This document shows, piece by piece, positions 1 to 49,630 of a DNA stretch of 64,000 nt. The notes below the pieces were generated by a model that was not told the origin of the DNA, made no database searches, and saw only the letters and a list, made by a program, of their open reading frames with translations. Position 1 is the stretch's first letter. Every line of letters starts with the position of its first letter. The DNA comes from a virus (lineage: Duplodnaviria; Caudoviricetes): the IMG/VR virus record IMGVR_UViG_3300029998_000597. One strand, written 5' to 3'. Both the position numbers and the translations under genes were made by a program.

Positions 1-1
1 T

Positions 2-1975
2 GACGATGCGCTTGAAGGTGGGCTTGGGCGAGGTGAATTAGGTGTTATAATAGGACCTTCATCTTTTGGTAAAGAGCAACCAATCAGCGAGTTAGTGTGT
101 ACTCCAGATGGATTTAGAACTATGGGTTCAATTGAAGTAGGTGATTTTGTTATTGGTGGAAATGGAAAACCAGTCAAAGTAATTAATACCTTTCCACAGG
201 GAGTTAAAGACGTATATAAAGTTACTTTTTCTGATAAAGTTTCAGTAGAATGCGGTATAGATCATTTATGGAATGTTAATTCAGTATATCAAAGGTGTGG
301 TAAAAAATACGTTAGTGGTGTTAGTAAAAGTCGTGATGATAAATATTATATACCAGATCACACATATCAAACATTATCATTGAAACAAATTTTAGAAAAA
401 GGGTTATTTAAAAACTATGCTGGACACCCTAAAAGACATAACTTTAAAGTTCCAATGCCAGAAGCGGTTCAGTTTAACACAATAGATATACCAGAAACAT
501 TACCACCTTATTTTATAGGGGCATTTATTGGAGATGGCTGTTTTTCAAGAATGGACATCACATCTGTTGACCAAGAAATAATTGATAAAATTTGTAAAAT
601 AACAAATGTAGTTTCATTAAATAATTCAACAAGAGACCCACATATTACCAAAATTCAATTATCTTATTTACTAAAAGAACAATTATATAAATATTTTACA
701 TTAGAAGAAAAAAGTGAAGATAAGTTTATACCAAACGATTATTTATATAATTCAATTGAAAATCGGATAGAATTATTAAATGGTCTTATGGATACCGATG
801 GAACTTGTCAAAAAAATGGTTGTTCTTGTTATAATACAAAATCAAAACAATTAGCCGAAGATGTTAAAACACTTGTATTATCTTTAGGTGGATTTGCAAT
901 TGTTAGAGAAAAAAATGCTTCTTATTTTAATAAAAAATATAATATTGGAGTAGATTGTGGTATTCATTATGAAGTAACAATTACATTAATAGATACAACT
1001 ATCCCAATATTTAATTTAAAAAGAAAACAAGATAGAGTTAATTATAGAACAAGTAAGAAAACACTTAGATTTATTGAGTCGGTTGAGTTAGTTAGACAAG
1101 AAGAGTCCAAATGTATTATGCTGGAAAGTGAAGATGGATTATATTTAACGCGAGATTTTATTGTTACACATAATACCTCATTAACAACAAGTTTTGCAAA
1201 TCATGCCGCTTTAAACAATTTTAAAGTACTTCAAATAATTTTTGAGGATAAGGAAAAACAAATTCAACGAAAACATATTGGGAAGATTACGGGTGTCGAG
1301 GCAAGAGATTTATCAAAACCAGAAAATATTGAAATGGTTAAAGATATTATGTCTTACACGGATGCTTTCGATGAAAATCTTGTAATTAAAAAATTTAATA
1401 CAGGGGAAGTTAATCCAGTTCAAATCAGGACATATATTAAGAGACTTATCAATACTGGTTTTAATCCAGATATGGTTATAGTGGATTATTTCGAATGTTT
1501 GGTAGCTTCAAAGAATTTCAAGGACCAGTGGACAGGAGAGGGTCATACAATGCGTCAATTAGAAGCAATAGCATCAGATTTAGATATTGCCTTATGGGTT
1601 CCAACCCAAGGAACGAAAGATTCATTAAATGCTGAAATTGTGACAATGGATAAAGCTGGTGGTAGTTTCAAAAAAATTCAAATTGCTCACATTGTAATAT
1701 CAATTGCCCGTTCAATGGAAGATATGGAAAATAATATTGCAACGATTGCTGTATTGAAAAATAGATCTGGTAAATCTGGTAGAGTAATGGAAGGTGCTTC
1801 ATTTAATAATGGTACTTGTGAGATAAACACTGATAATATCCAAATGTTTGAGGGAATGACAGATTATAATAGTTCTGAAGCTGAGAAAAAGCAAGAAAAA
1901 ACAAAAGATATTTTGGAAGCCGCAAGATTAAGAAGAGAATTGGCGAAAAAAGAAAAAGAAGAACAAAACAATTAA
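2..1975 (+). CDS. dnaB: Replicative DnaB-like helicase, 5'-truncated, intein-containing
   Basis: Frame is open from base 2: DDALEGGLGRGELGVIIGPSSFGK-[intein]-TSLTT (Walker A split by intein), later VIVDYFEC (Walker B). The ORF-track start at 95 is internal. Confidence 0.92.
   Translation, partial: DDALEGGLGRGELGVIIGPSSFGKEQPISELVCTPDGFRTMGSIEVGDFVIGGNGKPVKVINTFPQGVKDVYKVTFSDKVSVECGIDHLWNVNSVYQRCGKKYVSGVSKSRDDKYYIPDHTYQTLSLKQILEKGLFKNYAGHPKRHNFKVPMPEAVQFNTIDIPETLPPYFIGAFIGDGCFSRMDITSVDQEIIDKICKITNVVSLNNSTRDPHITKIQLSYLLKEQLYKYFTLEEKSEDKFIPNDYLYNSIENRIELLNGLMDTDGTCQKNGCSCYNTKSKQLAEDVKTLVLSLGGFAIVREKNASYFNKKYNIGVDCGIHYEVTITLIDTTIPIFNLKRKQDRVNYRTSKKTLRFIESVELVRQEESKCIMLESEDGLYLTRDFIVTHNTSLTTSFANHAALNNFKVLQIIFEDKEKQIQRKHIGKITGVEARDLSKPENIEMVKDIMSYTDAFDENLVIKKFNTGEVNPVQIRTYIKRLINTGFNPDMVIVDYFECLVASKNFKDQWTGEGHTMRQLEAIASDLDIALWVPTQGTKDSLNAEIVTMDKAGGSFKKIQIAHIVISIARSMEDMENNIATIAVLKNRSGKSGRVMEGASFNNGTCEINTDNIQMFEGMTDYNSSEAEKKQEKTKDILEAARLRRELAKKEKEEQNN
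74..1174 (+). mobile_element. Class 3-type intein (367 aa) with LAGLIDADG homing endonuclease
   Basis: Starts EQPISELVCTPDG right after Walker A GK, ends FIVTHN before T. LAGLIDADG motifs IGAFIGDG and LNGLMDTDG; HLW, KCIML and VTHN motifs. Confidence 0.9.
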
Positions 1976-5781: not shown

Positions 5782-6218
5782 GTATAATTTTAAATGAATA
5801 CAATGAAGAAAATAGAATTGATAAAACTTGGTTCGATAGTTCTAACGTTAAATATTGTGAATGCGATGATAAATTGGATGCACTAAAAGAAGTTACTGTT
5901 TGCTTCTCAGACGGGCGAACTTACTCATACTCAGACGTTAAGGTAAACGATTACCTCATGTTTAGAAATTCTTTAAGCCAAGGTAAAGATATATTTAAAT
6001 ACATTGCGGTTAAAGATAATGGTGTTCCAAGATATAAAACAACCAGATTAGAAAATACCGATTTAACTTTATTAGAGGTTCAAAAACAACAAATTTTAGA
6101 ATCACGCGTTGAAAAACTAAAAGAGTTCAATAAAACATTGGTTGAATCACAAGTTGATTTAGAACCAGAATTTTCTAAACATATTAAAGATAATATTGAA
6201 GATTTATTAATGAAATAA
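5778..6218 (+). CDS. KTSC-domain protein
   Basis: DSSNVKY...VTVCFSDGRTYSYSDV...SQGK pattern. Confidence 0.65.
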   Translation: MSIILNEYNEENRIDKTWFDSSNVKYCECDDKLDALKEVTVCFSDGRTYSYSDVKVNDYLMFRNSLSQGKDIFKYIAVKDNGVPRYKTTRLENTDLTLLEVQKQQILESRVEKLKEFNKTLVESQVDLEPEFSKHIKDNIEDLLMK

Positions 6219-35431: not shown

Positions 35432-35857
35432 ATGAAAAATTTAATAGAAATAAATATTCCAAATGAATATAAAAAATTAATTAAATATAATGATAATAAA
35501 ATAATTATTGATTTTATCAAAATAGATAAGAATAAAGAAATGGAGGATTTCTTTCGTTGTTTTTTAATCGATTTATCAATTGTTATTAAACCTGAATATC
35601 CTAATTCTGTATTTTATAAAGATAATAAAAATGATGAAGTTATTTTTGAATTATATCAGGATTCAGAAAATAAAGAAAAAAGGTATTTCTATGTTCATTA
35701 TGATAAAATTTGGTCAGTTTTTGGAAGTAACTTCGGTCTTAATTATAATGAAACTCAGTCCTTTATAAAAGACAGGGTGGAAGATACTCTAAAATTAGGA
35801 TCAGTAACACCTTGGAAGACAGGTCGTCGGAAAACGATTTGGTGGAAGATACTCTAA
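35432..35857 (+). CDS. Hypothetical protein whose C-terminus is encoded by a repeat-spacer array
   Basis: Ends VEDTLKLGSVTP (repeat 1)-WKTGRRKTI (spacer 1)-WWKIL* (repeat 2, shifted frame). Confidence 0.8.
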   Translation: MKNLIEINIPNEYKKLIKYNDNKIIIDFIKIDKNKEMEDFFRCFLIDLSIVIKPEYPNSVFYKDNKNDEVIFELYQDSENKEKRYFYVHYDKIWSVFGSNFGLNYNETQSFIKDRVEDTLKLGSVTPWKTGRRKTIWWKIL

Positions 35858-35925
35858 AATTAGGATCAGTAACACCAGATGTGGGAGGTAATAGTGTGAG
35901 AGTATGGTGGAAGAAACTCTAAAAT
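35776..35925 (+). repeat. 36-bp direct repeat x2 plus 20-bp partial third copy, 65-bp period
   Basis: GGTGGAAGATACTCTAAAATTAGGATCAGTAACACC at 35776-35811 and 35841-35876; GGTGGAAGAAACTCTAAAAT at 35906-35925. Confidence 0.95.
35776..35925. CRISPR. CRISPR-like mini-array, no cas genes in window
   Basis: Identical 36-nt repeats with paired GGTG/CACC ends, two unrelated 29-nt spacers, degenerate terminal repeat. CRISPR function unproven. Confidence 0.45.
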
Positions 35926-35964
35926 AAATAATAAATATTAATAAATTAAAAAAAAAGTAAAAAA

Positions 35965-36334: not shown

Positions 36335-36380
36335 AAAATAACCCAAATCTAATTTATATTATGATTTGGGTTATTTTTTT
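36335..36380 (+). terminator. Intrinsic terminator
   Basis: AAAATAACCCAAATC/GATTTGGGTTATTTT perfect stem. Confidence 0.8.
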
Positions 36381-47149: not shown

Positions 47150-49630
47150 ATGGAAGAAAATAAATATACAACTGAATTAAAAAAAGTATTGGCATTAGTA
47201 ACTAAAGATTTAGTTGAAGACTTTCCTACCAAAAAGATAACCATTGAATATTTTATGCTGGCGATTTTGCAATCAAAACAATCAATAGCATATAAAATGT
47301 TGATAAAATTTTTAGCAAAAGATGATATAAATGATTTGTTAGTTTATTTTTCTGAATTATTAAAAGAATTATCTGCGACCACTTTTAAGCCGAAAGTATT
47401 AAATAATATTGAAAAATCAATAGGATTCGATTTAGTTTTTAGTAATTGTTTAATAGCTGCTAATACAGAAAAAGAAAAATTAAACGATATTAAGATAGGG
47501 TCTGAACACGTATTATTATCAATACTTTCAAATGTTAAAGATATATCAAAACTAACTCACGTTGGTCTAAAATATGATAACCTATTCAATACCATTAATA
47601 CTATAAAACAAGGTGAAATAGCCAAATTTGACGAACAAAATGAAAATACAAACCAAAGCTATGTAGAAACAATACAAGGCCAGAAAAATAAACCATCTGG
47701 TAAAGCAAATATGATTAAATTGTATTGTACTAATTTAAATACATTAGCAAAACAAGGTAAAATAGATCAAATAGTTGGTAGAGAAGTTGAAATTAATCGT
47801 TTAATAAAAATTCTTGGTAGAAGAAATAAAAATAACATAATTTTAGTTGGTGATGGGGGTGTTGGCAAGAGTGCTATAATTTACGGCTTGGCTAATATGA
47901 TAGAAGAGGGTAAGGGTATGTTTCTTAATGGGAAAGAAATTTTATCTTTAGACTTATCATCTTTAATAGCTGGTACTTCATTCAGAGGGATGCTCGAAGA
48001 GAGATTGAATGGTGTTATAAATGAAATAAAAGCCAATAAAAATTATATGTTATTTATCGATGATATTCATTCTGTATTATCATCAAATTCCAATAATGCG
48101 TCTGATATTGGTGGTATATTATCAAAGGCCATGATAGATGGTGATATTCAATTAATAGCAACGACATCCTTTAAAGGATATAAAAATTCGATAGAGAACG
48201 AACCATCTTTAAACAGAAAATTTCAAAAAAGCGTTATTACTTCAACAACAATTGAACAAACAGAGAAGATATTATTTAATTCAAAAAAATACTATGAAAA
48301 GTATCATAATGTAAGCTATACGGACGAAGCCATTAGAGCTTGTGTAACGCTTGCAAATAAATATATCACAGAAAGGCACCTTCCAGACTCAGCAATTGAT
48401 ATAATGGACGAATGCGGCTCAGAAAAAAAGGTTTCTAACCTATACAATGAATCGGAACTTTTTGAATTAAAGAAAGAGCTTGAATTAAATAAGTTAAACG
48501 TCAAAGAAGCATACTCAGAAAATAATTTTGATATTGGTGATGGTTATAATTTAATATGTATTGAAATAGAAGGTAAGATAGTAGATTTAGAAAAAAATAA
48601 AAAATCACAATCTAAGAATAATATTAAAGAAATTACTGAAATCGATGTGTTTAATATTGTATCTGAAATGACAGGTGTCCCAATTAATAGGTTGACTACT
48701 TCGGAGAAGGAACGTTATTTAAACATTGAAAACAAATTAGGTGAAAGTATAATCGGCCAATCGGAAGCGATTAAAAAGGTTGCTCAATCCATGAAAAGAA
48801 GCCGAATGGGACTTGGTAGAAAAAATAAGCCTAATGGAGTTTTTATGTTTGTTGGGGAATCTGGGTGTGGAAAAACTTTTTTAGCTAAAAAATTAGCTGA
48901 AGAAATATTTGGTAGTGAAGATGCTTTAGTTAGATTTGATATGAGCGAATACTCTGACCAAACAGCTGTAAATAAGATGGTTGGAACTGGAAGTGGATTC
49001 GTTGGGTATGATCAAGGTGGTTTATTAACGGAAGCCATTAAAAACAAGCCATATTGTGTATTATTACTGGATGAAATTGAAAAGGCTCATAATGATGTTT
49101 ATAATATATTTTTACAGATTTTTGATGAAAGTTTTGCTACCGATAATACAGGTGTTCGTGTTTCATTTAAAAATGTTATTATTATTATGACATCGAACGT
49201 TGGCGCAAAAGATGCGGCTTCATTAGGTCGCGGAACTGGTTTTCAAATAAATGTGGAAGATAATAAAAAGAATATAATTGAAAAAGCCCTCAAAGGTAAG
49301 TTTCCGCCAGAATTCATTAGTAGACTTAATGACGTTATTTATTTCAACTCATTAACCGAAGACAACTTAAAATCAATTATCGAGTTAGAATTGAGTAAAT
49401 TAAAAAAACGTTTGAATGAGATTAATTTTGATGTTGAATTTGGAGATGATGTTACGGACTATTTATTTAAAACAATCGGTTCAGATAAAAACAGTGGTGC
49501 ACGAAAGATCAATAGGGCCATTGAAAATGAAATTGAAAATGTTATTTGTGATATATACTTGGAAAATGAATTAGAAAATGGATATATATTTAATGTGAAT
49601 ATAAATAATAATAAAATCGAAATTAAATGA
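47150..49630 (+). CDS. ClpC/ClpB-family AAA+ ATPase
   Basis: Clp-N repeats, GDGGVGKS and GESGCGKT Walker A motifs, RFDMSEY, LLDEIEKAH, PPEFISRL. Confidence 0.93.
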   Translation: MEENKYTTELKKVLALVTKDLVEDFPTKKITIEYFMLAILQSKQSIAYKMLIKFLAKDDINDLLVYFSELLKELSATTFKPKVLNNIEKSIGFDLVFSNCLIAANTEKEKLNDIKIGSEHVLLSILSNVKDISKLTHVGLKYDNLFNTINTIKQGEIAKFDEQNENTNQSYVETIQGQKNKPSGKANMIKLYCTNLNTLAKQGKIDQIVGREVEINRLIKILGRRNKNNIILVGDGGVGKSAIIYGLANMIEEGKGMFLNGKEILSLDLSSLIAGTSFRGMLEERLNGVINEIKANKNYMLFIDDIHSVLSSNSNNASDIGGILSKAMIDGDIQLIATTSFKGYKNSIENEPSLNRKFQKSVITSTTIEQTEKILFNSKKYYEKYHNVSYTDEAIRACVTLANKYITERHLPDSAIDIMDECGSEKKVSNLYNESELFELKKELELNKLNVKEAYSENNFDIGDGYNLICIEIEGKIVDLEKNKKSQSKNNIKEITEIDVFNIVSEMTGVPINRLTTSEKERYLNIENKLGESIIGQSEAIKKVAQSMKRSRMGLGRKNKPNGVFMFVGESGCGKTFLAKKLAEEIFGSEDALVRFDMSEYSDQTAVNKMVGTGSGFVGYDQGGLLTEAIKNKPYCVLLLDEIEKAHNDVYNIFLQIFDESFATDNTGVRVSFKNVIIIMTSNVGAKDAASLGRGTGFQINVEDNKKNIIEKALKGKFPPEFISRLNDVIYFNSLTEDNLKSIIELELSKLKKRLNEINFDVEFGDDVTDYLFKTIGSDKNSGARKINRAIENEIENVICDIYLENELENGYIFNVNINNNKIEIK

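Follow-up and report, generated by a model that had tools for sequence, protein, structure and literature searches.

A gene of a giant phage carries, at its 3′ end, a short series of direct repeats separated by unique spacers, the first repeat being the end of the gene itself; we would put at about even the chance that the whole is a repeat-spacer mini-array of CRISPR type, in which the 3′ end of a protein-coding phage gene serves as the acceptor repeat. On comparison of the arrays, a fixed 36-bp target has evidently been duplicated with each insertion of 29–30 bp directly past the codon for Pro127, so that the conserved protein is regenerated and only its disordered tail is altered. New units evidently adjoin the gene, with older ones decaying downstream, and at least two spacers are, to judge from where their matches begin and end, exact-boundary copies of sequence elsewhere, in one case on a separate peat replicon and in the other in a gene family of related elements. 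Spacer turnover, the decay of repeats with distance from the gene and these outside matches together point to active capture of DNA. That the spacers are integrated CRISPR-style, with a 36 + 30 ruler, at a gene-embedded acceptor site and by an integrase supplied in trans, is a reading that in our opinion could as easily prove right as wrong.

The stretch of DNA analysed here (the window, 64,000 nt; features in Table 1) is part of a 147-kb IMG/VR virus record, estimated to be 41% complete; contigs of 200–263 kb exist as well. The phage comes from peat metagenomes, where it was found in 24 runs, with the same array in independent assemblies. By gene content it is a T4-like giant phage (T4_Y16D, RNA ligase, and a DnaB helicase with a LAGLIDADG insert); no similar phages were found in INPHARED. 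A DUF3127 SSB adjoins the array, and the motif TAnnTTTG is in twofold excess upstream of ORFs; together these suggest a host among the Bacteroidota.

Table 1. Features of the gene-embedded array and their positions in the window.
Feature	Position	Strand	Description
ORF, 141 aa	35432..35857	+	residues 1–127 form the conserved domain; uncharacterised phage protein family
Leader-position segment	35753..35775	+	conserved coding sequence QSFIKDR (CAG TCC TTT ATA AAA GAC AGG); abuts repeat 1
Repeat 1, 36 nt	35776..35811	+	last 12 conserved codons (VEDTLKLGSVTP); putative acceptor and template copy of the array
Spacer 1	35812..35840	+	29 nt, or 30 including the G at 35841; 45% GC, against 28% GC for the genome
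Repeat 2	35841..35876	+	same as repeat 1; reads WWKIL-stop in the frame of the gene
Spacer 2	35877..35905	+	29 nt, 41% GC; no match found
Decayed terminal repeat	35906..35928	+	first 20 nt (to 35925) match at 19 of 20 bases, then TAA; own frame VEETLK-stop

The first-pass annotation had described two identical 36-bp repeats and a partial third, an exact 65-nt period and two unrelated 29-nt spacers, with repeat 1 being in-frame coding sequence, and all of this was confirmed. The two complete repeats have the sequence GGTGGAAGATACTCTAAAATTAGGATCAGTAACACC; none of 100 dinucleotide-preserving shuffles yielded two such 36-nt matches. Both start-to-start distances are exactly 65 nt, and neither spacer is related to the other. 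The third copy runs into TAA and A-rich sequence, and over a full 36 nt has 13 mismatches to repeat 1. The boundaries are uncertain by one base, and the units may be described as 36 + 29 or as 35 + 30. The array has the generic form of a CRISPR array, with direct repeats in the range of about 23–50 nt and unique spacers of similar, constant length. It has no non-coding, AT-rich leader. The earlier remark that there is no leader holds in this sense, but is better put another way: the conserved 3′ coding region of the gene fills the leader position.

In the 141-aa ORF, residues 128–141 (WKTGRRKTIWWKIL, then a stop) are spacer 1 (WKTGRRKTI) and the start of repeat 2 translated out of frame, because 65 is not a multiple of 3. 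There are 11 metagenomic homologues of this ORF at 49–67% identity, and proteins of the family are about 115–130 aa long. An AF2 model of the 141-aa ORF (mean pLDDT 77.5) has an alpha/beta domain, with the last helix extending into the repeat-encoded residues; the tail after residue 127 (Pro127), which is spacer-encoded, falls below 50 and is predicted to be disordered, and the insertion point should therefore sit where a random tail does least harm. The protein matches no family above threshold in Pfam, NCBIfam or PADLOC, and gives only insignificant matches in PHROGs (where the ORF of the window was the sole member scanned). Foldseek and VIA-align returned only uncharacterised relatives and weak, homeodomain-like helical matches (Z ≤ 4), with no known fold. 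Occasional members of the family are fused to PcfJ-like and SET domains.

The possibility had been raised of an undescribed repeat-spacer system tied to this protein family, and this is strongly supported, by arrays that homologues have built from their own 3′ ends, by differences among spacers, and by outside matches of spacers. A profile search gave 1,159 cluster representatives at E ≤ 1e-3, the family being found in peat and in many other metagenomes. Homologues of the ORF, which the first-pass annotation had proposed to search for, do carry arrays at their 3′ ends, the repeat corresponding in each to its own C-terminal codons: nearly every homologue examined has 1–3 further copies of its own 3′ end, with unique spacers of 27–31 nt. 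At the DNA level, in a sample of loci where a single lineage rich in paralogues predominates, about 20 different homologous genes have 2–4 copies of their own last 36 nt, spaced 27–31 nt apart (mostly 29 or 30). Tandem clusters of at least eight paralogues occur, with an array of its own on each. The finding that was to have counted against such a system, that homologues lack arrays and that spacers are invariant between relatives, was not made; arrays are widespread and spacers differ.

The same geometry can be followed in the proteins. Of 159 cluster representatives, all less than 50% identical to one another, 34 have a second in-frame copy of their own C-terminal 12-mer, and in 31 of the 34 it is offset by 22 aa (66 nt); the array period across the family is 65–66 nt. 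All homologues at 49–67% identity share a terminal 12-residue motif, followed by about 9 variable residues; among the homologues whose frame extends as far as the next repeat, most then end in [W/R]WK..-stop, which is that repeat out of frame, and two have a second in-frame copy of the motif instead. The 12-mer is widely different between proteins (VEDTLKIGSVTP, VWKHLKLKDVTP, VKRHTNLGSLTP and others) and the same within each protein; it is thus location within the gene, and no single sequence, that defines the repeat. Only one clear homologue without an array was found (locus L004). Its 3′ end has A, not G, before GTA, and CTCCAAC, not ACACC, and the terminal motifs common to the others are missing.

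Spacer content differs even between close relatives. Loci L008 and L028 are about 95% identical over the 3′ part of the gene and the downstream flank, and have three and two spacers respectively, wholly different, together with concerted differences in their repeats, which affect three positions, shared by all copies. Between L021 and L022, identity extends over the repeat and the next 7 nt, with unrelated sequence beyond. In nearly all arrays, repeat mismatches climb with distance from the gene (0, then 0–6, then 10–17), a polarity that fits an array growing next to the gene and decaying at its other end, the leader-distal repeat being degenerate as expected for polarised growth. Recombination between arrays occurs as well: some of the differences between paralogous arrays seem to be due to recombination inside repeats, and the chimeric repeat 2 of L015 indicates that recombination between paralogous arrays is apparently also shuffling units. 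Arrays do not differ across 10 samples that contain the P0004 gene, nor across any of the runs in which the present phage occurs, so that acquisition is not fast, and turnover on that scale is slow. Mean spacer GC is 38%, against 24–31% for most source loci. Stops in the coding frame are found in 10 of 28 spacers, as often as in the other frames, which argues that spacers are not selected to be open.

The database search proposed for the spacers had a mixed outcome. Four spacers, the two of the window among them, found no match in IMG/VR; for the two of the window, INPHARED also gave none, and neither the rest of the 147-kb record nor about 10 kb past its end contains a spacer match. The most direct evidence came from comparing Logan contigs of the peat runs with the array, which gave an exact match (30 of 30 nt) to spacer 1 on a separate contig of 589 nt (598 nt in one run), present in runs X3, X7, X10, X11, X13, and X17. 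The match covers window positions 35812–35841 only, beginning at the first base past repeat 1 and ending at the boundary of repeat 2, and the flanks (255 and 222 nt on either side) are unrelated to the array. The depth of this contig (11–16) is decoupled from that of the phage: in X17 it has a depth of 11, with no coverage of the array at all, and in X10 a depth of 13, compared to 3–8 for phage contigs. Its 90 known bases (the match and 30 readable bases on each side) form one open frame with 43% GC; among 90-nt windows of the phage, only 1.5% are as GC-rich. The 30-aa peptide from this contig matches nothing in Pfam or PDB. A similarity between the downstream flank of the protospacer and the start of the repeat (p about 0.05 by shuffling) was left out as evidence.

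The second match is that of a spacer found in two L014 arrays (at 5945 and 7425). The related loci L013, L016, and L020 contain a tandem “MYKTISN...” gene family, in 11 copies of which the spacer agrees at 25–28 of 30 positions with a site that is always the same; here too, the flanks bear no relation to the repeat. When the array is taken in the reading direction of the gene, both matched spacers are sense with respect to the ORFs they target. Two of about 37 spacers, spacer 1 and the L014 spacer, are in this way copies of foreign DNA; as for related viruses as targets, one spacer of the family matches related elements, and spacer 1 matches the contig of 43% GC.

Duplication of a 36-bp target with a constant insert of about 30 bp is, to our knowledge, made only by Cas1-Cas2 integrases. 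Considering these lengths of duplication and insert, the 36/30 dimensions of the units and a precedent for loading in trans, in which the type II-C Cas1 of F. columnare loads an array that has no Cas1 of its own and little resemblance in leader or repeat (PMC8092290), the insertions would be the work of a Cas1-Cas2-type integrase with a 36 + 30 ruler, supplied in trans, most likely by the host. This enzyme would read position and end motifs (G|GTRGA...ACACC, and upstream TTTATAAAG), not the whole repeat. The constrained positions are indeed narrow: the G before the repeat, the ACA CC at its end, and TTT ATA AAR a few codons upstream. The base before the GTG of the repeat is G in 20 of 21 sequences, in AGG, GTG, CAG, GAG, ATG, and CGG codons, and third-position G is rare in the genome; the sole sequence with A in its place is the array-less L004. 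The Ile in the leader position is ATA in 20 of 21 sequences. Because the synonymous junction G is kept wherever arrays exist, array competence looks to be under selection in the phage, if these codon counts are a guide.

Several observations count against an integrase acting in trans. A Cas1 HMM found nothing in the 147-kb record (about 41% of the genome) or in the record containing L004 (G001); ten large ORFs scanned have no Cas domain (six of the ten lack any Pfam match), nor do ten neighbouring genes at other loci. To this extent the earlier statement that there is no cas gene is borne out. In addition, arrays are identical across samples, some of their differences appear to come from recombination within repeats, and a source was found for just the two spacers above. 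A degenerate pattern of the family repeat, run against the genomes of 185,579 prokaryote species (GTDB), found no CRISPR array and no prophage copy; it gave two single matches, about the chance expectation, and of these L038, the one examined, falls within a bacterial gene that is unrelated. A search for the repeat elsewhere in IMG/VR was negative. A model based on host machinery would thus need a very permissive integrase.

One alternative is a self-contained phage module, in which the protein and its own 3′ end make up an autonomous spacer-capturing unit, independent of host CRISPR-Cas; we regard this as possible but doubtful. The strict coupling of gene and array speaks for it, with the gene's own sequence used as the repeat and boundaries at the same codons in a family of more than 1,000 members, as do the tandem clusters of paralogues, each with its array. 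The 65–66-nt geometry is invariant across the family, in peat and many other metagenomes, whereas the lengths of host CRISPR units vary by type, and no host repeat was matched in the 185,579 species. The novel fold, with its weak homeodomain-like matches, is also in its favour. Insertion would then be performed or guided by the protein that the gene encodes, or else by a different phage enzyme not related to Cas1. However, a protein of about 115 aa in which no nuclease or integrase motif was found makes an unlikely integrase; target duplication of this kind is familiar to us only from Cas1-Cas2; and no candidate enzyme co-occurs in the neighbourhoods seen, the record of this phage covering 41% of its genome. 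On balance, it seems to us rather unlikely that giant phages possess a Cas-independent, gene-linked capture of 30-bp foreign DNA, whether by machinery unrelated to Cas1-Cas2 or by an unrecognised relative of it.

A second alternative, which we consider improbable, is that the array mimics those of the host, as a viral mini-array or RNA anti-CRISPR whose type VI-B or other class 2-like repeat loads or jams effectors; the first-pass annotation had likewise noted a type VI-B resemblance, and suggested that the array borrows or jams host Cas13b-like machinery. Features reported for Cas13b repeats (PMC11662929) are a length of 35–36 nt, a conserved hairpin, complementary GUUG...CAAC ends, and an open loop rich in U. 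The repeat studied here agrees in length, and the low number of spacers (1–3) recalls viral mini-arrays (PMC11656645), as does the spacer that matches a gene family of related elements. Its ends are complementary too, but they are GGUG/CACC, and its U-rich centre (AAUUUUAG), a loose likeness to Cas13b repeats, is on the minus strand only; of the type VI-B repeat features only the length fits.

The fold that had been proposed for it, a GGTG/CACC stem with an upper stem, finds no support as a conserved feature. The single-sequence z-score is -0.37, no better than shuffles; RNAalifold found no consensus pair on either strand among 31 family repeats; and the proposed upper (inner) stem is paired in only 37% of cells. 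Neither CRISPR-DR nor any other RNA family of Rfam matches the repeat, and the comparison with known CRISPR repeats, another of the earlier proposals, came out negative on this count and in the 185,579 species genomes. No tracrRNA-like anti-repeat was found. Nor was a type VI-B locus found in the 147-kb record, with a cas13b of about 1,100–1,200 aa and two HEPN RxxxxH motifs by the array: no ORF there of more than 1,000 aa has two RxxxxH motifs. The fraction of identical synonymous codons is 0.58 in the repeat and 0.76 in the gene core; a constraint on the nucleotides of the whole repeat beyond coding was considered and is not seen, synonymous sites drifting at least as freely as in the core. 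Within one genome, the repeats of paralogues differ at up to about 8 of 36 positions. This drift and these differences are hard to reconcile with recognition by one effector. Moreover, both matched spacers are in sense orientation when the array is taken in the direction of the gene. Borrowing or jamming of Cas13b-like machinery was thus not demonstrated, given the ends, the lack of a shared hairpin, and the free synonymous drift; repeats like those of host CRISPR arrays, as in viral mini-arrays, were not found in the 185,579 species, although an unsampled host is possible.

A third alternative is a feature of the protein alone, with no role as nucleic acid, either tandem coding repeats or a store of C-terminal cassettes; this we think very unlikely. 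Some relatives with 30-nt spacers do read through in frame, with the 12-aa motif alternating with 10-aa variable segments (P0121, P0104, P0122), and the L044 array looks fossilised into an in-frame protein repeat of four units. In the window, however, as in about half of the arrays, translation is thrown out of frame by the 65-nt period and runs into a stop; the ORF of the window ends inside repeat 2, unlike a tandem-repeat protein. The frequency of coding-frame stops in spacers (10 of 28, the same as in other frames) led to the rejection of alternative C-terminal cassettes kept free of stops. The spacer-encoded tail is predicted to be disordered, and exact-boundary matches of spacers to unrelated genes would not be expected of an evolving protein repeat. 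Finally, a one-off tandem duplication of the gene end, or an artefact of assembly, has in its favour that the window holds just two full copies, and is almost certainly wrong, given the same array in independent assemblies and in 24 runs, the arrays in nearly all homologues examined, and the mutually unrelated spacers.

The reading preferred here, a gene-embedded mini-array loaded in trans, has partial parallels in several known systems. Nivala et al. 2018 reportedly observed off-target “neo-CRISPR” integration by Cas1-Cas2 at repeat-like genomic sites, said to be rare laboratory events at chance sites; the subject also comes up in PMC6698737. As in the present arrays, a new repeat-spacer unit is made at a non-canonical site with duplication of a repeat-length target; here, in contrast, the role of acceptor falls to a conserved gene end that has been kept throughout a large phage family. 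The mini-CRISPR arrays of the Sulfolobales viruses SPV1 and SPV2 (PMC11656645) are similar in having 1–3 spacers in a viral genome with no cas genes nearby, and at least one spacer of the present family shares with them a match to related elements. Known viral mini-arrays, though, have repeats identical to host CRISPR repeats, a non-coding leader, and spacers that mostly match related viruses (PMC11656645), whereas here the first repeat is coding, the repeats differ from gene to gene and have no match in 185,579 species, and the spacers of the window match no viral contig in IMG/VR or INPHARED.

Racr solitary repeat units (PMC10651486) and “Cracr” arrays (bioRxiv 10.1101/2024.10.29.618823) are likewise phage-borne, Cas-less, and shaped like CRISPR repeats. 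They imitate one particular host repeat, and any spacers they contain are conserved and functional (PMC10651486; bioRxiv 10.1101/2024.10.29.618823); the present repeats, by contrast, drift with codon changes and have no conserved hairpin, and the spacers are hypervariable. The closest dimensions are those of type VI-B (Cas13b) and II-C arrays in Bacteroidota (PMC13187072, PMC11662929, PMC8092290), which also combine a 35–36-nt repeat having short complementary ends with a 30-nt spacer: P. gingivalis VI-B has 36-bp repeats and 30-bp spacers (PMC13187072), and F. columnare II-C and VI-B have 36-bp repeats (PMC8092290). The present arrays differ from these in their GGUG/CACC ends and in having no conserved stem-loop, and neither cas13b nor cas9 was found in the 147-kb record, which covers about 41% of the genome. 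The literature searched yielded no account of arrays embedded in genes in this way.

Two benefits to the phage can be suggested. Like other viral mini-arrays, the array may be a source of guides directed at competing elements; the spacer that matches related elements supports this. Alternatively, it may be a sink, diverting prespacers from the host's own spacer integration, which is supported by the lack of an effector-type repeat signature and by the spacer from a contig that is not phage-like.

CRISPR finders that discard arrays overlapping ORFs will miss this gene-embedded class. The arrays raise the question of the minimal target sequence for a spacer integrase, and of whether phages exploit the adaptation machinery of their hosts, to obtain guides of their own or as a sink against immunisation; they also raise that of a possible integrase outside the known Cas1 family. 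Were the Cas-independent module to prove true, repeat-spacer memory systems would be of two independent kinds, the second present in many habitats. If integration in trans is the correct reading, CRISPR-style spacer integration would not be limited to non-coding arrays beside cas genes, and a large family of phage genes would keep its 3′ coding end competent as an acceptor, each capture rewriting the tail of the protein and regenerating its conserved end.

At least eight paralogues of the array-bearing gene lie in tandem, at a spacing of about 480-500 nt, on a 40-kb metagenome contig of which L014 and L015 are parts, and every one of them has a short array of its own. Because neighbouring arrays here have certain distal spacers in common, and certain of the repeats are chimeric, the cluster suggests unequal recombination among the tandem arrays. 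The DNA directly upstream of it encodes an AccI-type restriction endonuclease, which is complete (E 4e-222), and also an Eco57I-like methylase.

The array-bearing genes adjoin another set of tandem paralogues (“MYKTISNEIIR...”, 178-249 aa), a second family, for which no Pfam match was found; within genes of this family, the spacer of the L014 array has its match at one fixed position. For spacer 1 of the window, the exact match is on a separate contig (589-598 nt; peat runs X3, X7, X10, and X17), where the sequence four bases past the match, GGTGAAGAGACTTTA, is similar to the first bases of the repeat, GGTGGAAGATACTCTA; this likeness has p ~0.05 by shuffling, and may be due to chance.

At another homologous locus, L044, the reading frame runs through all four units of an array whose spacers are 30 nt long, and the repeats have diverged; this array seems to have become fossilised as a tandem protein repeat of 22 aa. 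Among the family members P0013, P0021, P0043, and P0130, some are long, with six domain copies within a single ORF in P0013 (760 aa) and five in P0021 (588 aa). Fusions to PcfJ-like or SET domains occur in others.

Coordinates of features in the window and at loci homologous to the array-bearing gene
Feature	Location
Tandem gene-array cluster	L014:3300-7450; L015:3700-4950
AccI-type endonuclease and Eco57I-like methylase	L015:662-3384
“MYKTISNEIIR...” tandem family	L013:33-3292; L016:1648-6052; L020:1319-3877
Four-unit in-frame array	L044:650-883
Terminator-like hairpin	window 36335-36377
DnaB-like helicase	window 1-1975; ORF start at G000:C1:43368
ClpB/Hsp104-like ATPase	window 47150-49630

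Downstream of the window's array, no terminator-like hairpin comes before the one directly past the DUF3127 SSB gene, whose perfect inverted repeat of 15 bp encloses a 13-nt loop; the array, its own gene and the SSB gene are therefore probably transcribed together. Elsewhere in the window, the phage encodes a ClpB/Hsp104-like double AAA+ ATPase (826 aa), and a DnaB-like helicase in which residues 425-510 are a LAGLIDADG homing-endonuclease domain, an intein-like insert. In the 147-kb record as a whole (G000), 22 of the 139 ORFs have TAnnTTTG, the Bacteroidota-type -7 promoter box, no more than 80 nt upstream of them (7.4% expected), with positions peaking at -40 to -31, an excess that hints at a Bacteroidota host for the phage.
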